A stretch of DNA of 64,000 nt from Moellerella wisconsensis ATCC 35017 (GCF_001294465.1 NZ_LGAA01000006.1:106950-170949); one strand, 5' to 3'. Shown: positions 1 through 39,883, counted from the stretch's first letter. Notes: generated by a model from the letters alone, not told the origin. Translations and numbers: made by a program.

Positions 1-607
1 TTATTATGATATGCAGATACACAACGTGTTTGAACGCACCACCAATGGCTGGTTTATTCAAATGGATAAGCAGTTGATTTCCGGCATTGAACTGCAAGCA
101 CGCTATGATAGCGGAAGAGTATTTGGTAATCTTAGCGCAAGTTATAATATAAAAACGAAAGTCTGTGATGAAGACTCTTACATTACCATGAATGTATTCA
201 ATAAACTCAAGATCCCAGATTGTATTGATGGGGGTTATCCTGGGGGATCATTACGAACGTCAATCCCGCCTAAATATTCGATTCATGCTAATCTAGGGAT
301 CCGACTTTTAGACCAAAAATTAAAATTAGGTAACCGTTTTATTTATCACAGTAAAGTGGTAAACAAAGATGAAACTTATTTGAGCACAATAATTCCAAAC
401 TTATTTAGTGGTAGCAATAATAATCCAGTACGCTGGAACCCTATTTTTACGATTGATTCATATATTAACTACCAAATTACGCCAGATACCTCTATTGAGT
501 TAGTTGGTACCAACATGCTAGATGAATATTATCTAGATCCACTCACTCGCTCGATGATGCCAGCCCCAGGGAGGACCTTTAAATTATCTATTACCAGTCA
601 GTTTTAA
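1..607 (+). CDS. TonB-dependent outer-membrane receptor, C-terminal fragment (5' end lies outside the window). It is a paralog of the 3007..6081 receptor.
   Basis: The frame is open from position 2. The translation aligns residue-for-residue with the last ~200 aa of the 1024-aa receptor at 3007..6081 (YYDMQIENVFER...GRTFKLSLSSQF). It ends in a terminal aromatic F, as TBDR barrels typically do. Confidence 0.8.
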   Translation, partial: YYDMQIHNVFERTTNGWFIQMDKQLISGIELQARYDSGRVFGNLSASYNIKTKVCDEDSYITMNVFNKLKIPDCIDGGYPGGSLRTSIPPKYSIHANLGIRLLDQKLKLGNRFIYHSKVVNKDETYLSTIIPNLFSGSNNNPVRWNPIFTIDSYINYQITPDTSIELVGTNMLDEYYLDPLTRSMMPAPGRTFKLSITSQF

Positions 608-1467
608 TTAATTTCATCTCTAATTATAGTCAGTAAAAACATTTTAATTACCCCACTAGTAATTCATTTGTATTGTTAGTTTTTCTGGCTGTGCTTCGGC
701 ACAGCCTTATACCTATTTAATACAAATAATACTCTATTTAATTATTTCAATTAAAATCGCTATCCTAATCCCCGAAAATAAAACTTCAATTAATTGAAAA
801 CCAAAGGGAATAAATTTAAATATAAAATACATATACAGCAAAAACTTATATATTAAATTAACATGAAATATGCATGAAATAAAAAATAAAATATTAAACT
901 CTTTGTATTACAATCCACTAATGAACTTTTAGCAAATTAAACGATCAACTAGGACAAAGTAGTTAATAATAACTATTTACCTTGCTAAAAAATCGGTATA
1001 TGCTTTCTTACATCAACCCACAAGAATAACCAAATAATCAATTACCCTTACAGATGAAACGGTGAAATAAAGGAAAAAATCAAAACCAGTATTAATATTT
1101 ACATTAAAATAAAGTTAATATTGAATATAAAGACAACAATTTCACCAATCATTATTTTTATTATAAAAACGAGATAACTAAAACGTACTAAAATATAGAT
1201 TAATTAAACATATAATCCTACAAAACAGAATATTTATTGGAACAAGGAAAAATATGAATAAAAAATAAAACCACTCCTAATAACTCTATAGATCATAAAT
1301 GAAAAATGAGACATAGATAACACGTAAAATATAAATGATATAATAAATAATGTGATAGAAAACATAGAAGTTATCACACATATAGAAATCATAACTTATT
1401 TTTATATAGTTTATATAGTTTAATTAACGCAACAACCAACCATTAAAATATTAAAAAAAATATTTAA

Positions 1468-2283
1468 ATGGCTATTAAAATGAATAAGGATATTACAATG
1501 AATAAGGATATTACAATGAATAGAGATATTAAAATAAATAAAGTAAATATAGCCGTCATCTTAAGCACTCTCATTACGGCCCCTTTAGCTCACGCCGCAT
1601 TAGGCTTTGATAAATCACCCGACGTAGACCTACAAACAGTTACTATTAGCGTCGGTCCTTCAGAAGTAAATACGCCTAAGCACTTCGCTCCACTTGGCTC
1701 TCCCGGCATAGGCATCTCACTTTTAGCGGACGGAAAAAGAATTGCTTTTCAAGGATTAAGTCTTATCCCGAAAGATGATAATGGTATTCATGACTCTTCA
1801 TTAGTACCTCCTCACCATAAAAATATTGGTATCTACCGCTTTGGGCAAGTAACTGACGAAGACGTTTACTTTGGTGACTGGGCGTATCAAGAAGGTGAAG
1901 AACACTACCGTAATATATACTATGCAGGGCAACAGGTCTCTACTGACCTCCCTACAGAAGGCAGTGCCACCTATACTACCCAAGGGATTAGTGCGGGTTA
2001 CAGTGAAAATGGCTTAATCACCGGTGAGCTAATCGCAGATTTTGCTAGCAATACCTTAATCGGCGACTTAACCAATGCTGAATTAGCATTAAATATCAAG
2101 GCAGAGATAGCCAGTGATCAAGGTCATTTTAAAGGGGATGCAATTATGCAACACGATGCAATCACTCATAATGGCGAAACCACAGGGCACTTTTTTAATA
2201 GCCAAGGCAGCTCCCTTGCCGGTATAGCGACTTTTGATAGTGCCCGAGAGTATGATTCAAGTTTCTCTGGGAAGAAACAATAA
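1468..2283 (+). CDS. Secreted hemophilin/HphA-like protein with a TbpB-handle-like C-terminal beta-barrel (copy 1). Probable type XI (Slam) secretion substrate. The true start is probably the ATG at 1498 or 1516.
   Basis: There is a signal peptide with an AHA/A signal peptidase I site and no lipobox Cys. The C-terminus ...GHFFNSQGSSLAGIATFDSAREYDSSFSGKKQ matches the characteristic TbpB/HpuA/fHbp/hemophilin C-terminal barrel ending (GxFYG...AGxF.A.KQ). It is a paralog of 6556..7329. Four in-frame ATGs lie inside an 18-bp tandem repeat at 1480..1533; each repeat unit carries its own AAGGA Shine-Dalgarno. Confidence 0.6.
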   Translation: MAIKMNKDITMNKDITMNRDIKINKVNIAVILSTLITAPLAHAALGFDKSPDVDLQTVTISVGPSEVNTPKHFAPLGSPGIGISLLADGKRIAFQGLSLIPKDDNGIHDSSLVPPHHKNIGIYRFGQVTDEDVYFGDWAYQEGEEHYRNIYYAGQQVSTDLPTEGSATYTTQGISAGYSENGLITGELIADFASNTLIGDLTNAELALNIKAEIASDQGHFKGDAIMQHDAITHNGETTGHFFNSQGSSLAGIATFDSAREYDSSFSGKKQ

Positions 2284-2490
2284 TCTCATTTTAAATAATC
2301 TAACTTTATATATTCAGTATCGAATTATTCGAGTAGTTTGAGTGGTTCGAATAATTCGAGTAGTTAACTGAGTTAATGGTGAAAAAAACAATTATATGGT
2401 AGTTGTACTATAATTATAATTTGACTTACTAAATTGCAAATAAATATTGAAACCAATAAGCCAATATATTCTGAGAAATGATTTATCTCA

Positions 2491-2518
2491 ACACCGGTTA
2501 TTCCTCCGGTGTTTTTTC
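2491..2518 (+). terminator. Rho-independent terminator-like hairpin (ACACCGG-ttattcct-CCGGTGT followed by TTTTTT) downstream of hemophilin-like gene 1.
   Basis: A GC-rich inverted repeat is followed immediately by a T6 run. Confidence 0.5.
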
Positions 2519-2638
2519 ATTTTATTTTTATGTTCAATAAATATCTCCTCAGCAATAATTTCAAATTCAAGAATATTTACTCTTTACACCGTACTAAAAA
2601 ATTGATTAAACTCCGCAACTTAATTAATACCTTAACTT

Positions 2639-2830
2639 ATGCATAAACCAACACACAGCCATGATGAAAAGGATTTTCAAATGCCTGAATTAAATTCAAG
2701 ATACAATTTGAATGCTATTAATTCCTTAAGCCAAATATTTACCCCTCTATTATCTACAATCGATATTCCTGCATCCTATTTTTATTTAACTGATCAAATA
2801 GGCCAATACTTTAATAAAAAAACAATATAG
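2639..2830 (+). pseudogene. Decayed remnant of a Slam/DUF560 (type XI secretion) gene.
   Basis: This 63-aa ORF contains SHDEKDFQ, which matches SHNEKDFQ at the N-terminus of the intact 454-aa Slam-like protein (7535..8899). Weaker similarity follows. It occupies the position between the hemophilin-like gene and the next receptor where an intact Slam sits in the second copy. Confidence 0.45.
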
Positions 2831-3006
2831 ACCAAATAAACCCGTACTTTATAAGGTGATATTTATAAGATCATATGTCTATTTTCTTTGTTTAGAATAA
2901 TACCATCATAAAATACCGGGATTATTTTTAAGCTCAGAATATATCATCATTATAAATATTAATTAACTTCATCACATCACTGTATAGACAGAAAGGTAAG
3001 GATACC

Positions 3007-6000
3007 ATGTCTCAACTTTGTACCCGTTATTCTAATCTGGCAATTTCGATTTCCTTATTACTCACATCAGCGCTTTATGCCTATGCTACGGCAATAGTCC
3101 AACAATCTAAAACATCTATTGGCAATATTACTATTAAAGAAATAACCACAGATGAAAACTCTGCAGCTGACCAGATTTACGATAAAGATATATCTAATAG
3201 CTACATTGGAAAAACACAGATTGAACGATTTAAAGGAACTTCCCCCGGTGATATCTTTAAAGGAACAGTCGGTGTTTTCAGCGGTGAGACCCGTAATGGG
3301 GGAGCGATTGATCCTAATATTCGAGGAGTTCAAGGGCAAGGCCGTATCCCCGTCACCATCGATGGAACAGAGCAAGCCATTACCGCTTATCGAGGCTATT
3401 ATGGCGCGAATAACCGTAATTACCTCGACCCAAATATTATTCGCAGTGTAGATATAGAAAAAGGCCCCTCATTATCACAAAATATGCGCAGCTCTATCGG
3501 TGGTGGTATCGCTATAAAAACTATTAATATCAATGATGTGGTTAAACCTGATGATAACTTTGGTATTAATGTAAAAACTGAAGTAGGCAATAATGCCATT
3601 AAACCCAGATTAGCCAAGCTGATTTATGGCGAAGATTATCGAGATACTACTCACGATTTATTCGATCGCTATACTTTTAATGATAAAGATATCAATATCC
3701 GCACCCACAATAGAAATGAACATGTTTTACACGGGATCAATAGCTATTCCTATCGTGTTGCCGTCGGTTTTCGTCAAGAATTATTTGATTTTATGCTCGC
3801 CTATAGCCATCGAACTAACGGTAACTTTGCTAGTGGTCACCGTGGTGCAAAGGGATATAGCGCCCCTTTTACTGAGCAAGATAGAGACAGTTATAGTGGA
3901 AAATTAGGACCAGATTCGGCTAAATATCATCCCGATCCTTTTTTACCCTTTGCCGCCAATGTTTATCAGCCCGGTCATGAAGTCTTAAATACCTCCAATA
4001 CTGCCGATACATTATTAATAAAACATAATTGGCGTATTAGTGATCAGCAACAATTAAACTTCACACTACGAAAAACTCAGCTCTATTTTGGCGATATAAT
4101 GCCTTCTCGACTCGCAAATTTCGCGCCCGAAAATGGCTTGCTACCACAATGGCCTGAAGGTCAAGTCGTACAGCAAGCCGGCAGTATTAATCATAAGATT
4201 CGTTCAGAAAAATATTCGGCTTTAAATCTTCACAGCAGCATCTGGTTTGATAATACGGATAGCAAAATTAATACCGCAGGTGGATTTCCTCGTTACCCGA
4301 CAGAAGTTGACTTTATGCATCAAATTCAAGGTATCAAAAATCCACATAAAGATGGCAGTTTAATTGATAGCGTAAGTAATCATACGCATAATAATCGTTG
4401 GGGAATTGACCTAAAAAATGACTTTCGCCTAACTCGTCACAACTTACTTACCCTGTCTGCGCGTTTTCAACATGAAAAAATGACTAATGTGAATCCCTAT
4501 AATAGCGGCTATGCCGTGAATACCTTTTGGCCTCCACGCGAAGGACGACGCCAAGAATATCATCTCGGGATTAATTATGCGTGGACACCACTAGAACGCC
4601 TCACTCTTAATGCCGGTATTCAATATAATGCGTATTGGTCAATCGATGATTTCATCAATAAACGCCGAGCAGCAGCAGACACGCAAGTAACTCCAAGCCC
4701 TGAGCGAATATCTTTATCCAGTAAATATCAGCGATTATTCACCCCACAAGAAAGTGAAATTTACCAACGCTATCAGCAACTACAAAAACAAAACTTATCA
4801 TTATTTGGGCAAGTACGGCAGCAGCAAGCTAAATTACGCGCTGAAAAGCGAAGCGCGACCACCGAAGAACAACATGCAATAAAAGCCATAAAACAACAGC
4901 AGCAACAAATATCACAAGAAACCAATAACCTGCAAAAACAATACAGTTATATAAATAAATCCGTGCAAGATAAAGCAACAGGACTGAACTATCACAATAT
5001 CAATTTTATTCAGCTAGTCGATGAACTTACCGGCCAACTGAATAAACAGGACAATCCTTTTTATACCGGTGAAATTGATATTAATCAGCAGCAATATGAT
5101 CCGATTAGCCAGCAGAATATCGATATTTATAAAGTGGCTGCATCAGCCCATCAAGGCAAACCTCTATTAGACTTTACCCATAAACGCGGAATTATAAACC
5201 CTAAAAAACCCCTCCCCAAACGCACTGCATGGGATTGGGCACCGGTACTTTCAGCCTCTTTAGATCTGACCGACGACTGGCGTATGTATCTGCGTTATGC
5301 AGAAACTATTCGTATGCCATCTCTGTATGAGGATACCGGTAATATAGCTGGCCAGCGCTACCATAAACCTAAAAATCAATTTAAGCCCGAACGTTCAAAA
5401 ACAGTAGAAATAGGCAGCGTCTATAATTTATCGCAGCTATTAAAAACTCAACATCATGCTGATATTAAATTAACTTATTATGATATGCAGATAGAAAATG
5501 TGTTCGAAAGAAATTATTTATCTCAAACTATTCAAATGGATAAACAACTAATATCAGGTATCGAATTACAAGCACGCTATGATAATGGATTATTTTTCAG
5601 CGATGTTAGCGCCAGTTATAATTTAAAAACAAAAGTCTGTGATGAAGATTCCTACATCGCAATTAATATGTTTAATAAATTACCTATCCCAAACTGTATT
5701 GATGGCGGTTATCCTGCTGGTTTTTTACGCACATCGACGCCCCCAAAATATTCACTTTATGCCAATATTGGTCTGCGCTTATTCGATGAAAAATTAACGC
5801 TCGGTAACCGATTTATCTATCACAGCAAAGTGATCAATAAAGATGAAGCCGATTTACAAAAACGCTTACCCAGCGCCTTTGCTGGCTTTAGTAATAATCC
5901 TCTACGCTGGAATCCCATATTTACTGTCGATGCCTATATGAGTTATCAGATAACTGCAGATACATCAGTAGAATTAGTAGGAAGTAATATGTTAGATGAA

Positions 6001-6081
6001 TATTATCTTGATCCATTAACTCGCTCGATGATGCCAGCACCGGGGCGAACGTTTAAATTATCGCTAAGCAGCCAATTCTAG
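3007..6081 (+). CDS. TonB-dependent outer-membrane receptor (1024 aa), likely a heme/hemophilin receptor (HphR/HpuB-like). It carries an unusual Q/K-rich predicted coiled-coil insertion.
   Basis: It has a signal peptide and an N-terminal plug region (GETRNGGAIDPNIRGVQGQGRIPVTIDGTEQA). The barrel is long and has the C-terminal ...GRTFKLSLSSQF with terminal F. The gene lies immediately upstream of a hemophilin-like gene, Slam and TonB. Confidence 0.85.
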   Translation: MSQLCTRYSNLAISISLLLTSALYAYATAIVQQSKTSIGNITIKEITTDENSAADQIYDKDISNSYIGKTQIERFKGTSPGDIFKGTVGVFSGETRNGGAIDPNIRGVQGQGRIPVTIDGTEQAITAYRGYYGANNRNYLDPNIIRSVDIEKGPSLSQNMRSSIGGGIAIKTININDVVKPDDNFGINVKTEVGNNAIKPRLAKLIYGEDYRDTTHDLFDRYTFNDKDINIRTHNRNEHVLHGINSYSYRVAVGFRQELFDFMLAYSHRTNGNFASGHRGAKGYSAPFTEQDRDSYSGKLGPDSAKYHPDPFLPFAANVYQPGHEVLNTSNTADTLLIKHNWRISDQQQLNFTLRKTQLYFGDIMPSRLANFAPENGLLPQWPEGQVVQQAGSINHKIRSEKYSALNLHSSIWFDNTDSKINTAGGFPRYPTEVDFMHQIQGIKNPHKDGSLIDSVSNHTHNNRWGIDLKNDFRLTRHNLLTLSARFQHEKMTNVNPYNSGYAVNTFWPPREGRRQEYHLGINYAWTPLERLTLNAGIQYNAYWSIDDFINKRRAAADTQVTPSPERISLSSKYQRLFTPQESEIYQRYQQLQKQNLSLFGQVRQQQAKLRAEKRSATTEEQHAIKAIKQQQQQISQETNNLQKQYSYINKSVQDKATGLNYHNINFIQLVDELTGQLNKQDNPFYTGEIDINQQQYDPISQQNIDIYKVAASAHQGKPLLDFTHKRGIINPKKPLPKRTAWDWAPVLSASLDLTDDWRMYLRYAETIRMPSLYEDTGNIAGQRYHKPKNQFKPERSKTVEIGSVYNLSQLLKTQHHADIKLTYYDMQIENVFERNYLSQTIQMDKQLISGIELQARYDNGLFFSDVSASYNLKTKVCDEDSYIAINMFNKLPIPNCIDGGYPAGFLRTSTPPKYSLYANIGLRLFDEKLTLGNRFIYHSKVINKDEADLQKRLPSAFAGFSNNPLRWNPIFTVDAYMSYQITADTSVELVGSNMLDEYYLDPLTRSMMPAPGRTFKLSLSSQF

Positions 6082-6555
6082 GACGATTAATTTGAGTGAT
6101 CCTTTGGCTGCCTATTAATATAGCCAAAGGATCCCCTTTATAATCCAGTATATTTGTAAGGAATTACTTTAATTTATTAATATCAAACAATAACCATAAT
6201 AATAAGATAAATTTAAAAATTTGAAAAAAACATTTATAAAACCAATTACATTATCAATTAAAAATAAAATCCAAAAAACACATTAGAATAAAATTAAAAT
6301 ACAGGTAAATAAATTAACTCATTGAATAAAAAAACAATTATTAAAATTAAAACAGATAAATTTGTTGGAAAATTAATAATATTAAAAATTATCGTTTACC
6401 CGATTAAAAAGCTAGTATATGCTCATCTTATTCCCAAACAACCTCCTGTTATATCGAGTGATTAGATTGAATGATAGGGTGTAAAACCACTAAAAATTAA
6501 TATAATCACATTTGCGCGTTTCTAATTAATATTAAATTTCAATAAGGATATTGAA

Positions 6556-7329
6556 GTGAAATTATTAAAATCTATTGTTATATTAAGTACTGTTTGTTGT
6601 GCGAATTTAGCTTATGCAGATTTAGGATTTAATAAATCAGCCGATCTAGATGACCAATTAGTATTTATTAATATCGGTCCCTCAGAAAGTTCCTCATGGG
6701 TTCATCCCGCAGCTTTAGGTTCCCCTGCGATTGGCGTCTCAGTAAAAAGTAATGGACTGAGAGTTGCCTTTAAAGGCCTGCTAAATTCACTGTTTTATAC
6801 CATGCCCACCGATAAACATGATATCTATGACAGCTCTCTTGTACGCCGCCCCGGGACTCATACTAATATTGGTGCCTATAGATTTTCTAAGCTAGATAAT
6901 GACGAAATTTACTACGGTGAATGGACATATCAATCTGAGGACGCCGACTACCGCAATGTTTATTATACCGGTAAAAATACTACGACTAATATGCCAACTG
7001 AAGGGATCGCTATCTATACCACTCAAGGGATAAGCTATAACAGTCACCAAGCGGGACCAGTTACAGGTCAGCTAACGGCAGACTTTGCCAAAAATACCTT
7101 ACATGGTGATTTAGCTAATAACGAATTATCCTTGAATATTGATGCCATTATTATTGATAGTAGCAATCAATTTTCTGGCAACACAATAATGACTCATAAT
7201 AATAATAACTATATTGGTAATTCAGAAGGTCATTTCTTTAATGATCAAGCTGATGCTTTAGCCGGTATTGCCACTTTTAAAGATAATAGCCAATATGACA
7301 CTAGCTTCGCGGGTAAAAAACAAGATTAA
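6556..7329 (+). CDS. Secreted hemophilin/HphA-like protein with a TbpB-handle-like C-terminal barrel (copy 2). It starts with GTG.
   Basis: AAGGA sits 8 nt upstream of the GTG. The signal peptide has an AYA/D cleavage site. The C-terminus ...GHFFNDQADALAGIATFKDNSQYDTSFAGKKQD matches the same family motif. Identity to 1468..2283 is roughly 40-45% by eye. Confidence 0.6.
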   Translation: MKLLKSIVILSTVCCANLAYADLGFNKSADLDDQLVFINIGPSESSSWVHPAALGSPAIGVSVKSNGLRVAFKGLLNSLFYTMPTDKHDIYDSSLVRRPGTHTNIGAYRFSKLDNDEIYYGEWTYQSEDADYRNVYYTGKNTTTNMPTEGIAIYTTQGISYNSHQAGPVTGQLTADFAKNTLHGDLANNELSLNIDAIIIDSSNQFSGNTIMTHNNNNYIGNSEGHFFNDQADALAGIATFKDNSQYDTSFAGKKQD

Positions 7330-7484
7330 GCTTTATCACTAACCAGATAATTTTTTATCTACTCGTTAAATTAATTAAATTTATATTATAACCATCTATT
7401 TAATTATTCTAGGTGATAATAATTAAAAACGTAAAATATTGGCGTATATTTATCAATATCTAAATAATAGATTAACTCACTAAA

Positions 7485-7512
7485 CGCCGAGATTTTCTCG
7501 GTGTTTTCTTTT
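7485..7512 (+). terminator. Terminator or attenuator hairpin (CGCCGAGA-ttt-TCTCGGTG followed by TTTTCTTTT) between hemophilin-like gene 2 and Slam.
   Basis: An 8-bp stem with one G-U pair is followed by a T-rich tract. It lies 23 nt upstream of the Slam start. Confidence 0.45.
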
Positions 7513-7534
7513 ATCTAACGCATAAAGTAAAAAT

Positions 7535-8899
7535 ATGACTAAATTTAATCGATTAAAGTTGTTACTATTTACATTATTCTTAAATTCATTAAACTTGGCC
7601 TATAGCCATGAAGTAATTAACAGCCATAATGAAAAGGATTTTCAAGTGTCTGTATTTCAAGCCGTCAATCAAAAAAACTGGTCTGCTGTTAATGACTATT
7701 CTTCTGAAATTGAAAGAAATATTGGAACAGAGAATAGCCTTTATTATTTTTTACAGGGTATGCTAGCCTTTGAGAGAAAAAATAATTTAGAAGCTATTAA
7801 TTTACTAAATCGAGCAATTCATTATCAACCAGATTTTATTCGTGCTAAGTTAGAACTTATTACAATATATTTAAAAAACAAAAATCAAAATTTAGCAAAA
7901 GAATTAATAAATGAATTATTATCCCATCAAAATATACCGGAGAAAATTAAAGAAAGATTACGCTATTTATTAAACACTCCGGAATATAAGCATACTAATA
8001 CCCGTAATCCGTTTTCAGCTCAAATAGCTATCGGCTATCAATATCAAGATAATATCAACCAAACAGCTGATGGCGATTCAATATGTACAGAACAACATCT
8101 TACCTCTGGGATATGTTTACAGAAATGGACGGCAACAGAACAAGATTCAGCTCAAGGAGTTTTCTTACGAACTGAACTAAGCTATCAAAAAAATATTCAT
8201 CCTGCACATGTCTGGCTCAATCAACTTTCTATTAACCATAAACAATATGTTAATGAGCCACAATATAATGAGCTATCTACCCAGATATATTCACGTTACC
8301 AATACCAGCAGCCACGCTATCAACTGCATATCGGGCCTAAAATATATTATGAAAATAGTGGTATTACTGGACACAATTATGGTGTGGGGATCCGCTGGGG
8401 CGGAATATGGCAACCGAGCCAAGCAAGCCAATGGTTACTCATTGCAGGACAAGAAATAAAGCAGCTAAGCATCCCGAATAATCCATATGCTAACGGCTCA
8501 CATTTTTACCATCAGCTAATTATTACTCGGCCGCTGTTCTTTGGTGACTTTTTCCAACTGACTGAGTTTTCGCATCACTATCATCGAGATACCAGTAAGG
8601 ATCATCATCAAATTCAATTTATTACCGGCGTTGACTGGCAATCGATTCCTTACGTTGAACCTAATATTTCTGTCAGTGGGTATCAGCAAAAGTTCCAAAA
8701 CTTCAATACTATCTTACAAGCTAAGCGACGAGATCGCGGAGTTGGAGTCCACGTAAAGATTAAAACTAAACACTGGCAACTGGCGGGTTTTACACCGACA
8801 TTAGCATTTTCACATCATTACATAAAAAGTAATGTTGATTGGCTGTATAGCCATCGGCGGAATCATGTTCAGCTATTTTTTGAACGTCGATTTCAATAA
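7535..8899 (+). CDS. Slam-like (DUF560) outer-membrane protein, the type XI secretion system translocator.
   Basis: It has a signal peptide, then roughly 150 aa of TPR-like helical repeats, then a beta-rich region that starts IAIGYQYQDNINQ (the GY-x-x-N-x-N pattern typical of DUF560 barrel starts) with alternating aromatic residues to the C-terminus. The size of 454 aa fits. It is positioned between a putative substrate and TonB. Confidence 0.6.
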   Translation: MTKFNRLKLLLFTLFLNSLNLAYSHEVINSHNEKDFQVSVFQAVNQKNWSAVNDYSSEIERNIGTENSLYYFLQGMLAFERKNNLEAINLLNRAIHYQPDFIRAKLELITIYLKNKNQNLAKELINELLSHQNIPEKIKERLRYLLNTPEYKHTNTRNPFSAQIAIGYQYQDNINQTADGDSICTEQHLTSGICLQKWTATEQDSAQGVFLRTELSYQKNIHPAHVWLNQLSINHKQYVNEPQYNELSTQIYSRYQYQQPRYQLHIGPKIYYENSGITGHNYGVGIRWGGIWQPSQASQWLLIAGQEIKQLSIPNNPYANGSHFYHQLIITRPLFFGDFFQLTEFSHHYHRDTSKDHHQIQFITGVDWQSIPYVEPNISVSGYQQKFQNFNTILQAKRRDRGVGVHVKIKTKHWQLAGFTPTLAFSHHYIKSNVDWLYSHRRNHVQLFFERRFQ

Positions 8900-8969
8900 T
8901 TTATTCGGCCATGCTGATTAAACCCGTAAGAGTACTATACCGAAGGGTTCTATATCGAAGGATACTACA

Positions 8970-9749
8970 TTGAAAAATACTATATTGACGAATACTGACT
9001 TGAAAAAGGCTATGCTGCAATTTTGCACGCATCATTATATTAGCTCATCCTTTTTTTCGCCAAAATTACTGCTTTGGGGGCTACTTGCTATCACTCTGCA
9101 TATCACTATTTTTGGTGTTTTCTTCATTACCCCAACATCCAAGCGGATCGATTCCCCGATGCAACAAGGCATACAATCACCTATCACCTCTATCCTGTTG
9201 CTCGCACAATCGTTAGTGCCGATAGAAAAGGAGGTCACAGATATAGACATCTCTATTCCACTGTCTCCAGTAAATGGAACCTATAACTTCTCGCCCCAAA
9301 AAGCCGTGATAAAAAAGAAACTCGATGATAAAAAGAAACCCATAAAACAACCCAAAAAAATGACCCCAAAAAAGGATAGTAAACAACAACTGGCCGGTAG
9401 CAATGAAATCAGTACTATTAGCGGAAATACCATCCCGGGTAAAGAGAATATTCAGGGGCATCAAGGTTCAACAGCCAACAGCTATATTTCAAAATTAAAA
9501 AGTGAAATTGAGAAACATAAGCAATATCCAAGGAAAGCCAGAAGATTACGTTATCAAGGTAAGGTGATGATCGAGATGACGGTCGCTAATAATGGATCAT
9601 TATCGAATATAAACGTGGCTAAATCATCAGGCTATGAACTACTCGATAAAGCCGCTATCGATGCCGTCTATAAATATCGCTCGATTGGTGATAAACCTGC
9701 AGAGGTTAAAGATATCCTAAGCTTTAATATGGTATTTTCTTTAGATTGA
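8970..9749 (+). CDS. TonB-family energy transducer. The start may be the internal Met at about 9012.
   Basis: It has one N-terminal transmembrane helix and a Pro/Lys-rich linker (KKKLDDKKKPIKQPKKMTPKK). The C-terminal TonB_C domain is ...RYQGKVMIEMTVANNGSLSNINVAKSSGYELLDKAAIDAVYKYR. Confidence 0.75.
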   Translation: MKNTILTNTDLKKAMLQFCTHHYISSSFFSPKLLLWGLLAITLHITIFGVFFITPTSKRIDSPMQQGIQSPITSILLLAQSLVPIEKEVTDIDISIPLSPVNGTYNFSPQKAVIKKKLDDKKKPIKQPKKMTPKKDSKQQLAGSNEISTISGNTIPGKENIQGHQGSTANSYISKLKSEIEKHKQYPRKARRLRYQGKVMIEMTVANNGSLSNINVAKSSGYELLDKAAIDAVYKYRSIGDKPAEVKDILSFNMVFSLD

Positions 9750-9938
9750 GGCTATTACATATTGGAATTACGGTTATTTGAAATTGCTCAGAATGAATAT
9801 TGTTTGAAATTAGCACGGCCATTAATCAAAATAGAAAAGAGGCTCACCACCATTAAACATAAATGGAGGGAGCCAAGCGCAACGATAACCATTGAGTCAT
9901 CATGCTGTTTATCATTGCTAGAAAGATATAAAAATTGA

Positions 9939-11303
9939 TTACTTACCGATACAAAAACTAGAGAATATTCGACCTAATAAGTCGTCAGAACTAAATTCGC
10001 CGGTAATTTCGCTCAATGCCTGCTGTGCTAAACGCAATTCTTCTGCCAATAGTTCACCCGAGCGCGCAACGACTAATTGTTGATATCCACCCTGTAAATG
10101 CTCAGCTGCGACATTTAATGCTTGCAAATGACGACGGCGAGCTAAAAAACCGCCCTCGGTATTACTTTCAAAGCCCATACTTTCTTTTAGATGATCGCGC
10201 AGCAATTCAATCCCTTCGCCTTCACGTGCCGATAAACGGATCAGTGAATAATCACCGAATTGAGTAAAGCCACTGACCTCCCCCGTAATATCAGTTTTAT
10301 TGCGAATAACAGTCACCGGTACAGACTCGGGCAAACGGGCAATAAATTCAGGCCAGATTTTTTCGGGTTCAATCGCATCAGTCGTTGTACCATCGACCAT
10401 AAATAATACGCGATCAGCTTGTTCTATTTCTTGCCATGCCCGTTCAATTCCAATGCGCTCTACTTTATCTGTCGATTCGCGTAAACCGGCGGTATCGATA
10501 ATATGCAATGGCATACCATCAATATGAATATGCTCTCGTAAAACATCTCGAGTAGTTCCAGCAATATCTGTCACGATAGCGGCGTCTCTGCCCGCGAGCG
10601 CATTCAACAGACTGGATTTACCGGCATTAGGGCGTCCGGCAATCACCACTTTCATTCCTTCACGTAATAGGCTTCCTTGATGCGCTTGGGAACGAACAGT
10701 ATTCAGTTCAGCAATCACTTCATTTAATTTAGCTTCAATAATACCGTCGGATAAGAAATCAATTTCTTCATCTGGAAAATCAATCGCAGCTTCAACGTAA
10801 ATACGTAAATGCGTTAACGCTTCGACTAACTGATGAACCTGTCCAGAGAAAACACCTTGCAGTGAATTCATCGCTGATCGCGCCGCTTGTTCTGAGCTAG
10901 CATCAATCAAATCAGCAATAGCCTCGGCTTGTGCTAAATCGAGTTTATCATTTAAAAATGCCCGCTCAGAGAATTCTCCCGGATTCGCGATACGTAATCC
11001 ATTGATGGATAAAATACGCTTCAGCAGTAAATCTAAAATAACTGGTCCACCATGCCCTTGCAGTTCAAGAACATCTTCGCCGGTGAATGAATTAGGGCCG
11101 GGGAAATATAAAGCTATCCCTTGGTCTAGCGTAGTACCATTTTCATCTTTAAATGGTAGATAATCTGCATAACGAGGTTTGGGTATTTTGCCTAAAACAA
11201 TTTCAGCAACGGCTGCCGCTTTAGGACCAGATACACGAAGAATACCAACACCGCCACGGCCGGGTGGTGTTGCCTGTGCGACGATTGTATCGTTGGTTTG
11301 CAT
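9939..11303 (-). CDS. mnmE: tRNA modification GTPase MnmE (TrmE).
   Basis: It has G-domain motifs ([18 protein letters not shown]) and the C-terminal C-I-G-K signature. It is syntenic with yidC. Confidence 0.95.
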
Positions 11304-11352
11304 AGTGTCTCTCTAAATAATATTTGGCTAAATTTATCTTTAAAAATAATCA

Positions 11353-11376
11353 AGGCGGTCTAATGACCGCCTTAAA
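11353..11376 (-). terminator. Rho-independent terminator downstream of yidC (AAGGCGGTC-taat-GACCGCCTT followed by a T-rich tract on the minus strand).
   Basis: A perfect 9-bp GC-rich stem followed by a T-run. Confidence 0.5.
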
Positions 11377-11429
11377 TATAACACTTCATGTCTTGGTGTC
11401 GCTAAGTCTTGGACTCAATTACACTGTGA

Positions 11430-13070
11430 CTATTTTTTACCGCGACTATGAAGACCACGTTTTTCCAGACCACGATAAATAATCTGCTGCTGAAGAATGG
11501 TCACCAAGTTACTCACGATATAATACAGAACCAGACCTGATGGGAACCATAAGAAGAAGATAGTAAACACAACCGGCATATAGGTCATGATCTTCTGCTG
11601 CATTGGATCAGTTACCGCTGTCGGAGACATTTTCTGGATAACAAACATAGTGATACCCATCAGAACAGGCAGGATATAATAAGGATCCTGTGTTGATAAG
11701 TCTTGTATCCAACCAAAGAATGGCGCCTGACGTAATTCAACCGAGCCCATCAGCATATAATACAGGGCTAAGAAGATCGGCATCTGAATAAGCAGAGGTA
11801 AACAACCACCAAGTGGGTTTACTTTCTCAGCTTTGTACATCGCCATCATTTCTTGGCTCATACGCTGTTTATCATCACCAATACGCTCACGCATCGCAGC
11901 TAATTTCGGCTGTAATAAACGCATTTTGGCCATTGACGTATATTGTGCTTTAGTCAGTGGGTACATGATACCGCGCACAATAAAGGTAATGATGATAATC
12001 GCAATACCCCAGTTTCCAACGAAACCATGGATAAATTTCAGTAATTTAAACAGCGGCTGAGAAATAAACCATAACCAACCGTAGTCAACACTCAAGTCTA
12101 AATGAGGCGCAACCTCAGCCATTTCTGACTGAATTTCAGGGCCTATCCACAATGTTGAGCCATAAGAACCGGTACCATTCGCAGCGATTGAGATGGGTGA
12201 ACTCTTATAACCAATAATCGCGGATTTTTTATCTAAATCGATAGTATAAAAAGTGCTGGTTTCCTTGCTTTCAGGCACCCATGCTGTTGCAAAATATTGT
12301 TGCAACATGGCGACCCAGCCACCTTTAGTCGAAATATTCAGATTCTTATCTTCGATATCACCAAAACTATATTTTTTATAGTTAGTTTCATCTGATGAAT
12401 AAGCTGCACCACGATAAGTATGCAACGCAAAGTTGCTGCTGCCAGTATCGCGTTCTTTCGGTAAGTTGATGGTTTGTTTCAACTGACCAAAGAAAGCCAG
12501 GTTCAACGGACGCTCAGTAGTATTCTGAATACTGTATTCAACATCAACCGCATAATTACCGCGTTTCAGAACATAGGTTTTCTGATAAACAACGCCATCT
12601 TTACCGGTGAAAGTCATCGGGATGCGTAATTCATCTTGGCCTTTTTCCAGCACATAACTGTCTGAAGACGTCGTGTAGACTGGACGCATTCCATTATCAT
12701 AGCCAGGGTTATCTGGGCCATCCTGACCAATCAGACCACTTTGCGCTTGATAAATAAAACCGGGGGTAGTTTCCAGTAAACGGAAAGGATTTGTTGAATC
12801 CAGTGTCGCGGGATAGGCTAACAAGTCAGCCTCATCGATATCACCACCACGCGTATTGATGCGTAAATCCAGTACATCAGTTTTAACTGTGATTAGTTTA
12901 CCTTGCCCACTCTGAGTTACCGGTTGGGCATCACTGCTTGGCATATCCGCTTGTTGTGTAGTCTGTACCGCCTTGTTTTGTAGGTCGGCGTTATCGCCTT
13001 CCCACGCTTGCCAGACTAGGAACGAAACGAACAGCAAAGCGATGAGTAGAAGATTGCGTTGCGAATCCAT
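11430..13070 (-). CDS. yidC: Membrane protein insertase YidC.
   Basis: It is near-colinear with E. coli YidC (MDSQRNLL...[10 protein letters not shown]), 546 aa. Confidence 0.96.
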
Positions 13071-13072
13071 CG

Positions 13073-13333
13073 TTAATGTTCTCTATTATCATCGTTTTTT
13101 TTAGGTGGAACAGGGTCGTCTCCACCAGCGTGTAAAGGGTGGCATTTTAATATGCGTTTCGCCGTTAACCAACTCCCTTTTATCATTCCAAACCTGCGCA
13201 ATGCCTCAATTCCATAATAAGAGCACGTAGGATTAAAACGACAACGAGGCCCCAGCATTGGACTAATAACCAACTGGTAGCCTCTGATCAATGAGATCAG
13301 GAGTTTTGAGCCAAGCGACGGTGACGACGCCAT
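13073..13333 (-). CDS. yidD: Membrane protein insertion efficiency factor YidD.
   Basis: It has the conserved YidD motifs ([13 protein letters not shown]..., [12 protein letters not shown]) and overlaps the rnpA 3' end as in E. coli. Confidence 0.85.
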
Positions 13334-13656
13334 AACTTATCCAATGCTTCCGTTATCTGTCGATTGTCTAAATTGGTTATCCCCTTTCTCACCAAGAGCA
13401 CAAAATCCATAGGAGGTAACTCATGTTGATGCAAACGAAAGTATTCACGTGCTAATCGTTTGATACGATTTCGCTCATGAGCTCGTTTAACATTTTTTTT
13501 GGCGATAGTAAGACCGATGCGGGGATGCCCCAGCTCATTAAGGCGACCGAGGATTGTTATCTCCGGTGAACTCGCTCTTTGAGGCTGCTTAAAGACATAA
13601 TCGAAATGCCTGGGAGTTAACAAACGTAACTCCCGAGGAAAAGCGAGCGTAACCAC
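13297..13656 (-). CDS. rnpA: RNase P protein component RnpA.
   Basis: It is a basic 119-aa protein and is syntenic between rpmH and yidD. Confidence 0.9.
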
Positions 13657-13676
13657 GTTGATAATGGCTAGCTTTA

Positions 13677-13832
<156 letters not shown>

Positions 13833-14407
13833 CTAACTTTAAATTTATTACTGATTCAGTAAACGCGTGGGTAACCAGTGAAATTAATGCTCACCAGACA
13901 CCTCAATCGCAATATCAATATAGAAAGAGGCAGGATTGTAATAAAAAATTAGCCTCCACGTCAATAAAATGACGCAGTCAGACTGTAATTAATTATAGAT
14001 TGGCTGACAATAACACCACCTAACAGCAATTAATTGCTATTAGCGGCTCAATTTTAATTGCCCTTCTAACATAGCCCTGCAACCTGCCGAGACCTGTGCC
14101 CTAACTCACTAACGTGCTATCTATTAGATTTCGCTGCCGAATCCCAAAGAAAACAACAATACGGAACCCGAATAAACTCGCAACCATTAGCTAAGTAATG
14201 ACATACAGGGTGCAAGATTATACGGACTCCACCTTAAAGCGCAAGGATCATCGCCAGATCAGATTTATTTTTTTGATCTAACAGACACGCTCATAGATTT
14301 GATCTAAAGTTATCCCCAGAATTATACAAGCCTTATATGCCGATAATAGAGTTTGCGAGTAGTTTACGTATCCTCTTTCTCCACAGGAACAACGCATTAT
14401 CCTTACC

Positions 14408-14416
14408 TGTGGATAA
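14408..14416. promoter_or_regulatory. DnaA box (TGTGGATAA) in the dnaA promoter region.
   Basis: It is an exact 9-mer match to the R-box consensus in inverse orientation. A weaker TGATCCACG and several GATC sites lie nearby (14461..14545). Confidence 0.5.
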
Positions 14417-14727
14417 AAAGCTGAAAAACTGTGTAAAAGAATGAAGATCTCTGGGTGATTTTACGCTATGATCCACGGTCATCTTGCTGATCAGAAGATC
14501 AGAATGTGGTAGATAACCTAGTGATAACTAGATCTAGATATATAGATAAAGAAATACACTAGATATAGAAATCAATAAGTCTATCGCTGAACAACATCAA
14601 AGGTTGCTTTCTGGTCTATGGCAAAAGATAAGCGCCTATTAGTTATTCTATAGTTAAATCTGTAGTTAAATCTGTAGTTAAATCCATAATCTTTGTTTTC
14701 ATTTATCTTGTTTTAGGGGAGTCCGAC

Positions 14728-16122
14728 GTGTCACTTTCGCTTTGGCAGCAATGTCTTGCCCGATTGCAGGATGAATTACCTGCCACAGAATTTAGTATGT
14801 GGATACGCCCCCTTCAGGCTGAACTGAACGACAACACGTTGGCGTTATATGCGCCTAACCGTTTTGTTCTTGACTGGGTAAGAGATAAATACATTAACAA
14901 TATCAATGAATTGTTGAATGATTTTTGTGGTTCAGATGCACCGGTCTTACATTTTGAAGTCGGCAATAAGCCGATGCAAAGAGTCGCGACGAGCAATAGC
15001 GTTCGTGGCACCAGTGTACCATCATATACGACCTCGTCTCCTACCCCGCCGGTCAGACCCAGCTGGGATAATTCAACCAAAGTGCAGCCCGATGTCTCTT
15101 ATCGTTCGAATGTGAACCCTAAGCATACATTTGATAACTTTGTTGAAGGTAAATCCAACCAACTTGCCCGTGCTGCGGCAAGACAAGTGGCAGAGAATCC
15201 TGGTGGCGCCTATAACCCACTATTTTTATACGGTGGTACAGGGCTAGGTAAAACGCATCTTTTGCATGCTGTCGGTAATAGCATCATGCAACATAAAGAG
15301 AATGCGCGCGTTGTTTATATGCACTCTGAACGATTTGTTCAAGATATGGTCAAGGCATTGCAAAATAATGCGATAGAAGAATTCAAACGCTACTATCGTT
15401 CTGTTGATGCACTGCTGATTGATGATATCCAATTTTTTGCCAATAAAGAGCGTTCACAAGAAGAATTTTTCCATACTTTTAATGCGCTTCTGGAAGGCAA
15501 TCAACAAATTATTTTAACCTCAGATCGCTACCCAAAAGAAATTAATGGCGTAGAAGATAGACTAAAATCTCGTTTTGGTTGGGGACTAACGGTCGCGATT
15601 GAGCCACCTGAGCTTGAAACGCGTGTCGCTATCCTAATGAAAAAGGCTGATGAAAATAAAATTCAGCTACCGGGCGAAGTGGCCTTCTTTATTGCTAAAC
15701 GTCTGCGTTCCAATGTACGAGAGCTAGAAGGTGCATTAAACCGCGTGATCGCTAACGCAAATTTTACCGGGCGAGCAATTACAATTGATTTTGTTCGTGA
15801 GGCATTGCGTGACCTTTTAGCGTTGCAAGAAAAATTAGTTACTATTGATAATATTCAGAAAACTGTCGCTGAATACTACAAAATCAAAGTGGCGGATCTC
15901 CTTTCTAAACGTCGTTCCCGTTCTGTCGCACGACCAAGACAAATGGCAATGGCACTAGCAAAAGAGCTGACTAACCACAGTTTACCCGAGATCGGAGATG
16001 CCTTTGGTGGCCGTGACCATACCACGGTATTACATGCCTGTCGTAAAATTGAACAATTGCGCGAAGAAAGCCATGACATCAAAGAAGATTTTTCTAACTT
16101 AATCAGAACATTATCATCTTAA
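14728..16122 (+). CDS. dnaA: Chromosomal replication initiator DnaA, GTG start.
   Basis: [22 protein letters not shown]... is near-identical to E. coli DnaA. It has an AAA+ Walker A ([10 protein letters not shown]) and a C-terminal DNA-binding domain. Confidence 0.97.
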
Positions 16123-20863: not shown

Positions 20864-22120
20864 TTACGTCGTTTTACCTAATGCTTGCCCACGAAGTTTT
20901 GCTGCTTTAGCTGGAGAAACCAACGTAAAATAAGAGATCACAGTAAAAACTAACACTATACAGCCAAGGATCAGGTAAGTGCCTTGAAAACCAACTTTTT
21001 CATATAATTGGCCGGTAAAAATAGACATAAACATAATCGCCAATTGTTTAAAAAAGCAGAAGCACACTAAATAGATAGTGGCAGAAAACCTAACTTCAAA
21101 TACGGTAGTTATATATTTAAAGCAACCCACAATTAAAAATGGCACTTCAAACATATGCAGTGTTTTCAAGATCACCACTTCAACGGCCGAGGTAGCAAAT
21201 GAAGAGCCTAAAATACGAACGGCCATAATCATACCGGCAATTAATAACCCGTTCTTCGCACCAATACGGTTGATAATTACCGGTGCAAAAAACATAATCG
21301 TTGCGTTTAATAGCTCGCCTAATGTGGTCACATAACCGAAGACCCGTATTCCTTGATGAGGCGAATCAAAAAAACCGACAAAGAAATTAGCAAATTGCTG
21401 ATCAAATACATCGTAGGTACAAGAAACCCCAACTACAAATAAACTTAAAAACCACAGATTACGATCTTTAAATAATAAGAAAATCGTTTTTAAGGTAAAA
21501 GGCTTCTTATTTGCGCCCAGCTCATTAGCTACTAATGCGCTACTATCAGCCTCAGGTTTAGCAAAGAATAATAATATCGCCAGTAAAATTGCGCAGACTG
21601 ATCCCATCCAAAAAACAAATTGGTCATTGATAGTCATCATAATGCCAGCAATAGAGGCACAAATAGCCCAACCAATGCAGCCAAATAAACGTGCACGACC
21701 AAATTCAAAATGGCTTCTGCGGCTGACTTTCTCTATATACGCCTCAATGACTGGTGCACCGCCGTTATAAATAAAACCGAGATAAATTCCTCCAACTATC
21801 GAGGCTAAATAAATATTAACTTGCAGTAATGGCCCAAACACAAAAATAAAGAATGGACCAAACAAAACCAACATACCTGTAATCACCCACAGAAGATGTT
21901 TTTTAAGTCCTAATTTATCCGATAACACCCCAAATACAGGCTGGAACACTAAAGAGAATAATGAGATGCTGGCAAAAATTATCCCGGTTTCGCCCTTGGT
22001 GACATGGTTAACATCTGCCAACCAAATGGGGAAAAATGGAAAATAAGCCCCCATAATGAAAAAGTAGAAAAAGAAAAAGCTACCAAATAACCAAAAGTTT
22101 TTATTTTTCATGTAATACAT
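20864..22120 (-). CDS. lacY: Lactose permease LacY (MFS).
   Basis: [34 protein letters not shown]... is colinear with E. coli LacY through to the C-terminal region. Confidence 0.93.
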
Positions 22121-22142
22121 AGCTAGGATCCTTTTGGTTAGC

Positions 22143-25298
<3,156 letters not shown>

Positions 25299-25300
25299 CT

Positions 25301-25321
25301 AATGTTATACGCTCACATAAC
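25301..25321. promoter_or_regulatory. lac operator O1-like site (AATGTTATACGCTCACATAAC).
   Basis: It matches the E. coli O1 reverse complement AATTGTTATCCGCTCACAATT at about 16 of 21 positions. It lies immediately upstream of lacZ and downstream of lacI. Confidence 0.55.
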
Positions 25322-25451
25322 TAATTAAACTGACAGATGGCGAGATTTTGTAAAGTAGAGGATCAGAAAATAAGGGTGTGGCTCACAGTTTATACAATAA
25401 ATAATGTAATTAATGTGTCGATAATTGGCCTGTTATCACAAGAATGTTTGT

Positions 25452-29835: not shown

Positions 29836-30120
29836 TTTTCTTCCGGCGCCATTAATTTTCCGTTCTTAATCCAATAAATATTTCCCCTAACTAATTTATA
29901 TATTTATTCTTTTTACTATTTAACTCTCATTAATTGTATTTAATTTAAATAATTGACTTAAATACTCGATTTAATAAATCTTGATATGCCATTTATAATA
30001 AAAACAATAGAATATATTACTATTTAGAGATTAGTCCGATAAAAAACTATCACTAAATAGTAATATAATTTAAAGTCTAATCACCTTGAAAATTTAATGC
30101 ATCTACTCGAGAGAGAGTCC

Positions 30121-38141: not shown

Positions 38142-38151
38142 AGTGAGATAA

Positions 38152-39881: not shown

Positions 39882-39883
39882 TT

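Follow-up and report, generated by a model that had tools for sequence, protein, structure and literature searches.

Introduction

Can one outer-membrane secretor serve several secreted heme carriers and two receptors? This question is raised by a locus at the start of a 64,000-nucleotide stretch of Moellerella wisconsensis ATCC 35017 DNA (GCF_001294465.1, NZ_LGAA01000006.1:106950-170949), the whole of which is called the window here. Positions 1-9749 are, in our judgement, quite likely the right-hand two thirds of the M. wisconsensis hrp/hph TonB-dependent heme-uptake locus, in which Slam-exported hemophilins form an expanded array with one secretor. This is a known system in an undescribed expanded arrangement, in which the cargo and the receptors are multiplied and all but one secretor have decayed.

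Systems of this type have been described before (Latham 2019; Bateman 2021; Grossman 2021, 2024; Shin 2024). The hrp locus of Xenorhabdus nematophila consists of TonB, the receptor HrpA, the type 11 secretion system (T11SS) protein HrpB and the hemophilin homologue HrpC (PMC8406197). Slam-dependent secretion of homologues has been demonstrated in the literature, including Grossman 2021 (PMC8406197). In the literature, the T11SS specificity resides in the cargo barrel, the T11SS proteins are selective for their cognate cargo, and the receptors are specific for their cognate HphA.

A single organism is known to be able to carry more than one member of the hemophilin family; HrpC and CrpC are an example, and each of them has a secretor to itself. 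According to Grossman et al., 92% of the hemophilin homologues are located near TonB or TonB-dependent receptor (TBDR) genes, and the HrpC-like hemophilins co-occur with formate dehydrogenase genes (48/81) and tRNA-modification genes (30/81). Here, we examine how the M. wisconsensis locus is built, and whether its single secretor may suffice for all its cargoes.

Results

Layout and extent of the locus

A six-frame listing of open reading frames (ORFs) gives the plus-strand order of a TBDR 3′ end, hemophilin 1, a Slam remnant, a TBDR, hemophilin 2, Slam and TonB, and the minus-strand mnmE and yidC come to the right of TonB. Every ORF was found at the place and in the order given by a preceding interpretation, called the sequence-only reading below. 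The genes of the system in the window are the following.

1..607 (ORF 2..607), plus strand: TBDR1 3′ end, the last 201 codons, 75% identical to the TBDR2 C-terminus
1468..2283, plus strand: Hph1, hemophilin paralogue 1; longest ORF of 271 residues, likely start at ATG 1498 or 1516; predicted secreted bis-His heme binder
2582..2830, plus strand: 5′ remnant of a Slam/T11SS gene, a pseudogene, including a 63-residue ORF at 2639..2830
3007..6081, plus strand: TBDR2, putative hemophilin/heme receptor of the HrpA/HphR type; 1024 residues, with Plug and barrel
6556..7329, plus strand: Hph2, hemophilin paralogue 2; 257 residues, GTG start; predicted secreted bis-His heme binder
7535..8899, plus strand: Slam, type 11 secretion outer-membrane protein; 454 residues, SlipAM/DUF560 match at 8.6e-26
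8970..9749, plus strand: the locus TonB; 259 residues from a TTG start, 245-265 residues by other callers

The window edge truncates the locus, and about 13 kb more lies to the left. This left part was read from CAADJB010000004.1 (GCA_900706815.1; L001), a contig that matches the window at 100% identity along 17,329 nt, and the window proteins match M. wisconsensis accessions including those of the ATCC 35017 assembly. Full locus maps were made from 12 M. wisconsensis genomes and metagenome-assembled genomes (MAGs).

In its complete order, the locus begins beside the minus-strand fdoGHI/fdhE with fdhD, followed by HphX (257 residues), HphY (260), HphZ (254) and a degenerate region. It continues with TBDR1 (1026), Hph1, the Slam remnant, TBDR2 (1024), Hph2, Slam and TonB, toward which mnmE is directed. 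Full-length TBDR1 lies at L001 972..4052, starting 3.4 kb left of the window. Altogether the locus holds five hemophilin paralogues and two receptors; of its Slam genes one is intact and two are pseudogenes, and a single TonB completes the set.

On the same contig of the window strain, a consecutive accession series includes HphX (VFS49879), HphY (VFS49881) and HphZ (VFS49883), and Hph1 and Hph2 are VFS49889 and VFS49895. No further copies of the locus genes were found in the remaining 54 kb of the window. The sequence-only reading had described a tandem duplication; the paralogous units are indeed present, but a simple duplication is not what they form. Instead, they make up an old array of three units with two cargo genes added, most of which lies outside the window.

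Hph1 and Hph2 are hemophilins

The hemophilin or HphA family is defined by Pfam PF22828 and PF22829. Hph1 matches HphA_N at 2e-15 (57.6 bits, cut-off 22) and HphA_C at 1.3e-15 (58.2 bits, cut-off 31), and Hph2 does so at 4.1e-12 (46.9 bits) and 2.9e-14 (53.8 bits) with the same respective cut-offs of 22 and 31. Both also match TbpB_B_D above its gathering cut-off. Among all PDB sequences, they match hemophilins only, these being HphA or Hpl proteins of Vibrio harveyi, Stenotrophomonas maltophilia, Haemophilus parainfluenzae, Haemophilus haemolyticus and Acinetobacter baumannii (E 1e-19 to 6e-31). Hph1 matches V. harveyi HphA at 5.9e-31 and S. maltophilia HphA at 1.3e-27, and the respective values for Hph2 are 7.8e-28 and 1.2e-28.

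AlphaFold2 models built on a 32-sequence alignment have a mean predicted local distance difference test score (pLDDT) of 90.5 for Hph1 and 89.7 for Hph2, and eight C-terminal strands in each. In Foldseek comparison with the PDB, HphA/hemophilin crystal structures supply the chains in the top eight places for each model (E 7e-20 to 1.6e-13), after which HpuA, TbpB, LbpB and fHbp are ranked. The structure 8gm3 is matched by Hph1 at E 1.9e-20 and by Hph2 at E 7e-20 with a template modelling (TM) score of 0.87, and the top matches of both models reach TM 0.83-0.87, all normalised to the target. With a pLDDT of about 90 and HphA structures as the top matches, the hemophilin/TbpB-like fold proposed earlier for both small proteins is borne out, and the proposed GHFF...AGIATF...GKKQ motif is found in both. 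From the profile matches, the solved-structure matches and the AlphaFold/Foldseek results together, Hph1 and Hph2 are members of the HphA/hemophilin family.

The heme ligands are His29 and His80 in S. maltophilia HphA, and His25 and His64 in V. harveyi HphA (Shin et al.). In HMMER alignments, His50/His102 of Hph2 and His72/His117 of Hph1 align with His29/His80 of the S. maltophilia protein (8GMM). The second histidine of both also aligns with V. harveyi His64, and in a loop the first histidine of V. harveyi is shifted by two residues. The family filter of Shin et al. takes an axial histidine in the β5-β6 loop, to which bis-His members add a second one in the β2-β3 loop. By these alignments, both putative heme-ligating histidines are retained in Hph1 and Hph2.

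Rule-based calls place AXA-type cleavage sites after AHA and before A in Hph1, and after AYA and before D in Hph2. In all five paralogues an AXA-like site is followed by a conserved LGF(N/D)KS, and no PROSITE-type lipobox (PS51257) was found in any of them by regular-expression and rule check. Hph2 has two Cys in the h-region of its signal peptide, with Val before Cys14 and Cys before Cys15, neither of which the lipobox rule admits; Hph1, HphX, HphY and HphZ have no N-terminal Cys. The signal peptidase I (SPase I) sites without a lipobox, as read earlier, are thereby upheld.

Both proteins match NCBIfam NF041636, 'Slam-dependent surface lipoprotein', at 4.5e-32 (Hph1) and 5.6e-35 (Hph2), with 111-121 bits against a cut-off of 80. 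This RefSeq product name is a family label and not a description of the proteins, because they have no lipobox. A lipoprotein assignment of the hemophilins was rejected on the same ground, which applies to every paralogue.

Hph1 and Hph2 are 52% identical overall, and 55% identity is found for the N-terminal handle as well as for the C-terminal barrel. The sequence-only reading had diverged N-terminal halves joined to a common barrel, and this was rejected for the in-window pair, whose handle and barrel are equally diverged. Their synonymous sites are saturated in both halves; therefore, the duplication is old.

One intact Slam and two decayed copies

The 454-residue protein matches SlipAM/DUF560 (PF04575) with 91.5 bits against a cut-off of 22 over profile positions 4-288 of 288, and this match along the full profile agrees with the DUF560 barrel suggested earlier. 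The N-terminal tetratricopeptide matches are weak, with 30.1 bits for TPR_Slam (cut-off 35.2) and 24.3 for TPR_19 (cut-off 25). A rule-based signal peptide, MTKFNRLKLLLFTLFLNSLNLAYS, ends in LNLAYS with HEV as the next residues and exists only in the 454-residue reading from ATG 7535. The N-terminus of this reading is conserved in a related species. RefSeq calls Slam a 417-residue 'porin family protein' in several strains, and the signal peptide is thereby lost.

The protein is 51% identical to a Moellerella sp. Slam and 24-25% to Xenorhabdus HrpB, and a PDB sequence search with it gave no match. No second intact Slam was found in the window or the rest of the locus. What is found between Hph1 and TBDR2 is a remnant, as had been noticed: tblastn matches 2582..2830 to residues 11-56 of Slam, interrupted by three in-frame stops (E 4.9e-4). 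The region of its 63-residue ORF has 80% nucleotide identity to Slam positions 7607-7656 over 50 nt.

Another, clearer Slam 5′ remnant with in-frame stops lies outside the window, after HphZ and upstream of TBDR1 (E 3e-7). Immediately before TBDR1 is a possible Slam 3′ end, a weak match at E 0.06. In the window remnant, 14 of 192 nt differ between strain lineages with 9 amino-acid changes, and it evolves at a roughly neutral rate.

A related Moellerella-like MAG has an unlinked module at another chromosomal site (L028 6200-10777; L029). Its Slam keeps residues 2-100 (E 7e-21) and, directly attached to them, residues 427-448 (E 1.5e-5, with stops), and this internally deleted Slam is followed by an intact 1037-residue receptor and an intact 258-residue hemophilin. 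Because this module has likewise lost the secretor while keeping cargo and receptor, such loss recurs in the lineage.

Receptors and TonB

TBDR2 matches the Pfam Plug (5.3e-13, 49.8 bits) and TBDR barrel (3e-24, 87.1 bits) domains. Its mature mass of 113.8 kDa falls in the range of 112-120 kDa of the hemophilin receptors of Shin et al. The plug region matches HasR (best, 1e-17), PhuR and ShuA in the PDB, and the protein shares 44% identity with its HrpA orthologues in Xenorhabdus.

The two receptors TBDR1 and TBDR2 can be aligned along 3.2 kb with 67% nucleotide and 63.5% amino-acid identity. Their C-termini share 150 of 201 residues (75%; 75-77% in the DNA), so the earlier claim that the last 200 residues are near-identical was rejected. 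A hypervariable stretch at about residues 530-730 of TBDR2 has only 32-44% identity to TBDR1 and is presumed to form extracellular loops.

Classical heme receptors have FRAP/NPNL-type boxes with a histidine between them. All the HrpA-type receptors compared have a box-like 'RMPSLYE' ... 'QFKPERS', which in TBDR2 reads 'RMPSLYE...RYHKPKNQFKPERS' at window positions 5400-5520. Of the receptors compared, TBDR2 and that of X. szentirmaii alone have the histidine between the boxes, which is missing in TBDR1 and the other orthologues. In one strain TBDR2 is apparently split into ORFs of 501 and 521 residues (L015 17364-20438), either by mutation or by sequencing error.

The TonB gene product matches TonB_C at 2.7e-16 (60.2 bits) and TIGR01352 at 2.7e-15, with a hydrophobic stretch, LLLWGLLAITLHITIFGVFF, near its N-terminus. 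Its gene has the same position in all orthologous loci. A dedicated TonB had been thought a possible novelty, but one is already part of the described hrp locus (PMC8406197).

A conserved chromosomal site

The arrangement fdhD, hemophilin, Slam, TBDR and TonB, facing mnmE and yidC, is found in Xenorhabdus bharatensis, X. innexi, X. stockiae and X. szentirmaii (L021-L024), and at the same fdhD–mnmE site in two Moellerella-like genomes (L012, L026). These four species and two genomes make up the orthology comparison. Gene content and position mark the M. wisconsensis locus as orthologous to Xenorhabdus hrp and as standing where that locus normally sits, and fdhD–mnmE as the place in which hrp is conserved across this bacterial family.

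The sequence-only reading had an accessory island inserted downstream of mnmE, where E. coli has tnaCAB. E. coli tnaCAB does adjoin mnmE, but the insertion was rejected, as the same gene set occupies the site in the relatives. The relation proposed earlier to a Xenorhabdus TBDR/DUF560/hemophilin locus proved correct (Grossman 2021, PMC8406197). The word-indexed homologue searches were shallow, with 5 matches for Hph2 and 3 for Slam, and a scan of genome contigs with Hph2 alone brought up no relative. The search patterns from one alignment (A1) reached only Xenorhabdus and one Moellerella MAG, and a second alignment (A2) was too diverse for patterns.

Units of the array

Comparing the composite locus with itself reveals three paralogous units. 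HphZ and its flanks align with Hph2 and its flanks, and the match runs on across the spacer between Hph2 and Slam to include about 120 nt at the start of Slam; Hph1 and its flanks align likewise. The simpler relatives have a single unit of hemophilin-Slam-TBDR-TonB. Set against these relatives, the M. wisconsensis array reads as three units. An ancestral unit of hemophilin-Slam-TBDR(-TonB) would thus be present thrice, as HphZ-dSlam-TBDR1, Hph1-dSlam-TBDR2 and Hph2-Slam-TonB, where dSlam is a decayed Slam. HphX and HphY are two extra cargo copies at the head of the array, only remnants are left of the Slam in the first two units, and a receptor is lacking from the third.

The ratio of nonsynonymous to synonymous polymorphism (pN/pS) of the cargo and receptor genes is 0.03-0.41 in 7-12 strains, with 0.11 for TBDR2. 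Purifying selection acts on every cargo and receptor gene among the strains. Because the other Slam genes have decayed to remnants, the one secretor probably serves four or five cargoes.

Homogenised barrels and old handles upstream

HphX, HphY and HphZ are each other's closest relatives. From about residue 112 on, they are 96-100% identical in protein and 93-99% in nucleotides, whereas their handles are only 55-66% identical. The synonymous divergence (dS) is 0.056-0.18 in the C-terminal part versus 0.58-1.42 in the handle. The ratio of nonsynonymous to synonymous divergence (dN/dS) is below 0.5 in both parts, and 0.27-0.41 for the handle divergence.

Because the contrast sits in dS, either gene conversion of the barrel part or import of old handle segments is suggested. 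Positive selection behind the handle divergence was rejected, given the dN/dS of 0.27-0.41 and the location of the contrast between the parts in dS. As to the heme ligands, HphZ retains both histidines and HphX is without the second axial one. HphY has Tyr in place of the first histidine and lacks the second, and five residues are inserted in one of its loops.

Four strains have only two upstream copies, of which the first is a hybrid of X (5′) and Y (3′) followed by the Y-Z spacer. This hybrid arose by unequal crossing-over, with the exchange falling within the homogenised part. In one strain HphY is apparently truncated to 176 residues (L008 8744-9274), by mutation or sequencing error.

Other features of the window

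Several smaller elements accompany the hemophilin genes, and mnmE flanks the system.

1473..1541, plus strand: 18-nt in-frame tandem repeat at the Hph1 5′ end; 3.8 copies, score 103 by Tandem Repeats Finder
2490..2513, plus strand: terminator-like hairpin after Hph1; 8-bp stem with 5 GC pairs, then a T run
6394..6424, plus strand: promoter-like block TTTACC ... TATATG, conserved upstream of hemophilin genes
7482..7506, plus strand: terminator-like hairpin between Hph2 and Slam; 11-bp stem with 5 GC pairs, then a T run
9939..11303, minus strand: mnmE, right flank, outside the system; NF003661 match at 2.1e-137

Every 18-nt repeat unit holds an AAGGA Shine-Dalgarno-like element and an ATG, so Hph1 has several nested starts. 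The unit is homologous to the Hph2 start region at 6541-6560 and is present in 2-4 copies across the M. wisconsensis strains. Because this copy number varies, Hph1 is annotated variously as 255, 261, 267 or 271 residues. The promoter-like block is unique within the window and can be aligned in the regions preceding HphZ, Hph2 and their counterparts in two Moellerella-like genomes and the related MAG (L012, L026, L028); its promoter role is only inferred. No RNA families were found with Rfam at window positions 1-15000.

Three other regions of the window are recorded here as side observations. At 20864-26561 on the minus strand, a lacY-lacZ-lacI cluster stands directly after gyrB in an origin-proximal region. 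At 30097-38742 on the plus strand is a four-gene cluster, with proteins of 224 and 734 residues without Pfam match, a 1650-residue protein with DUF3686 (3.3e-202), DUF7902 and AAA, and a 196-residue rhomboid-domain protein; PADLOC gave no match for it. At 38857-40552 on the minus strand is an envelope gene trio for a GNA1162-like lipoprotein, a DUF4810 protein and a CsgG-like protein.

Discussion

How the locus may work

The features described above fit a four-step route. Hph1 and Hph2 would be made with Sec/SPase I signal peptides and stay unlipidated. The single intact Slam (7535..8899) would then move them across the outer membrane by recognising the C-terminal 8-stranded barrel, as the published HrpB/HrpC, HsmA/HphA and chimera experiments suggest. 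Outside the cell, the N-terminal handle is predicted to bind heme between His72 and His117 in Hph1 and between His50 and His102 in Hph2, judging from the alignment to holo-HphA crystal structures. The loaded hemophore would dock on one of the two ~114-kDa receptors, between which the cargo proteins may be shared, and heme would be imported using the locus TonB, in keeping with family membership and gene linkage.

Several points weigh against this heme-uptake route. Heme binding, secretion and receptor pairing in M. wisconsensis are all inferred. The receptors fall short of the NCBIfam heme-receptor cut-offs, as the best families of TBDR2 are TIGR01785 with 211.9 bits (cut-off 316.85) and TIGR01786 with 181.6 (cut-off 323.75). 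No gene for a heme oxygenase, a periplasmic or inner-membrane heme transporter or a heme ABC transporter was found in the locus or the scanned window ORFs. The best Fur box in the M. wisconsensis intergenic regions, 14/19, is not above chance (shuffle P 0.16), and iron regulation of the locus is unsupported; upstream of the Xenorhabdus hrpC are overlapping 14/19 Fur-box matches. The constraint is most relaxed in Hph1 and TBDR1, with pN/pS of about 0.4.

The secretor step also meets an objection. The Hph2 barrel is only 55-61% identical to the barrels of the other four cargoes, and because of this and the published cognate selectivity of T11SS, export of all five by one Slam is not assured. In the literature, X. 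nematophila HrpB partly secretes Hpl, with 40% barrel identity, but HphA and CrpC are not secreted. By analogy with that partial secretion, it is plausible that the one Slam exports all five cargoes.

Alternative explanations

One alternative concerns the units without their own Slam. HphX-Z with TBDR1, and Hph1 with TBDR2, could be decaying relics whose cargo stays unexported, with only Hph2-Slam-TonB working, as the two Slam pseudogenes, the cognate selectivity of the published T11SS and the highest pN/pS being that of Hph1 and TBDR1 might imply. The sporadic disruptions (HphY in L008, TBDR2 in L015) and the lack of HphY in some strains point the same way. However, the Hph1, TBDR1, HphX and HphZ ORFs are intact in all 11-12 strains compared, and the pN/pS of 0.03-0.41 is well below 1 as against the roughly neutral Slam remnant. 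Signal peptides and histidine ligands are kept, the dSlam-TBDR-Hph module of the related MAG has intact cargo and receptor, and the Hph2 unit has no receptor of its own, hence needs TBDR1 or TBDR2. We consider the relic explanation improbable. It is very improbable that the small proteins are Slam-dependent surface lipoproteins acting as cell-bound co-receptors like TbpB and HpuA. The NF041636 score and product name and the two h-region Cys of Hph2 speak for it, but no lipobox is seen in any of the five, the other four have no N-terminal Cys, a single barrel with an HphA_N handle belongs to the soluble class of Grossman 2021 (PMC8406197), and the nearest structures are the soluble HphA proteins.

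The remaining alternatives concern what the array is for. Some or all paralogues may have shifted to another porphyrin-like or metal ligand, making the array a multi-ligand scavenging set instead of a redundant heme system. The changed ligand residues and loop of HphX and HphY fit this, and X. cabanillasii CrpC, which is without these histidines, binds Co(III) protoporphyrin IX and not heme (literature). The locus also abuts formate dehydrogenase genes, like the published 'cobalt/molybdenum-associated' subcluster. Yet Hph1, Hph2 and HphZ retain both histidines, and HphX, HphY and HphZ are mutually closest and not CrpC-like imports. Moreover, Tyr itself can ligate heme iron, as in HasA. We hold this shift of ligand to be possible, and only tentatively. 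A main role in competitive heme sequestration against neighbouring bacteria, with hemophore and receptor variants that prevent piracy of the loaded hemophore, seems to us rather doubtful. It would accord with the heme starvation of the competitor nontypeable Haemophilus influenzae by H. haemolyticus hemophilin, as reported, and with the receptor specificity for cognate HphA in the literature. The receptors differ most in the one ~200-residue stretch, the handles are old and divergent, and the hemophilin copy number is strain-variable. Nevertheless, the dN/dS among the paralogues is below 1 everywhere, with no signature of positive selection at this resolution, and such sequestration is compatible with heme uptake through the one-secretor array and not exclusive of it.

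Relation to known systems

The locus shares its gene set and a soluble SPase I-type cargo with the X. nematophila hrp locus, and its chromosomal site with four other Xenorhabdus species. HrpC has been modelled with bis-His heme ligation (literature). The hrp locus has one cargo, one secretor and one receptor, whereas M. wisconsensis has five cargoes, two receptors, one secretor and two secretor pseudogenes. Compared with their Xenorhabdus counterparts, the cargo proteins are 37-40% identical, the receptor 44% and Slam only 24-25%. X. szentirmaii differs in that it has two hemophilins at this site, each with an intact Slam.

The HphA/HsmA/HphR systems of A. baumannii, S. maltophilia and V. harveyi (Bateman 2021; Shin 2023/2024) resemble the locus in fold (Foldseek TM 0.74-0.87, normalised to the target), in the two axial histidines, in the receptor size of 112-120 kDa and in the adjacent Slam and TBDR genes. 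They differ in sequence, as HphA is 27-34% identical to Hph1/Hph2, and the A. baumannii hemO cluster adds a heme oxygenase and FecIR-type regulators, neither of which was found in the M. wisconsensis locus. H. haemolyticus Hpl (PDB 6OM5) is of the same family and two-domain structure, but has a single axial histidine, a longer loop and 25-27% identity.

X. cabanillasii CrpB/CrpC are a precedent for HphX and HphY, with a histidine-less hemophilin paralogue near formate dehydrogenase or B12 genes and beside another T11SS cargo. CrpC has a dedicated T11SS, however, and HphX and HphY have none and arose within the Moellerella array. The Neisseria Slam1/Slam2 systems (TbpB, LbpB, HpuA, fHbp) share the DUF560 secretor and the C-terminal 8-stranded barrel of the cargo, although the Neisseria cargoes are surface-displayed lipoproteins and the M. 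wisconsensis hemophilins are without a lipobox. Serratia marcescens HasA/HasR is alike in pairing a secreted hemophore with a dedicated TonB-dependent receptor, and HasR is the best PDB match of the TBDR2 plug. HasA has a fold unrelated to the hemophilins and is exported by a type 1 system.

Moellerella is not mentioned in the text and supplements of the T11SS survey papers. We found no published description of an array of five cargo genes and two receptors, of a lone surviving secretor beside two secretor pseudogenes, of a homogenised barrel with old divergent handles, of histidine loss in two paralogues, or of recombination-driven copy-number change between strains.

Implications

The published rule is that secretor and receptor are each cognate-selective. 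The M. wisconsensis locus is a natural counter-arrangement, with two decayed secretors beside conserved cargo and receptors. It thereby offers a test set for how much barrel divergence one Slam tolerates, at 55-61% identity to the barrel of the adjacent cargo, and for which receptor region reads which hemophore. With their missing histidines, HphX and HphY are further hemophilins in which new ligand specificities may be sought. In RefSeq, two annotations look misleading, namely 'surface lipoprotein' without a lipobox and the 417-residue 'porin' without a signal peptide.

A further proposal, which we hold to be possible though less likely than not, treats the cargoes as cassettes. One T11SS would export five cargoes of three barrel types, conversion would homogenise the HphX, HphY and HphZ barrels over anciently divergent handles, two of them without heme-ligating histidines and perhaps binding a non-heme ligand, and two receptors with a hypervariable ~200-residue stretch would split the cargo. 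If true, nature would here provide a cassette system whose export tag and ligand domain evolve separately, each under its own regime.

In practical terms the locus matters only modestly, as the system type is known and the organism is a rare opportunist. The interest of the locus is mainly for the T11SS cargo specificity and the hemophore-receptor pairing.

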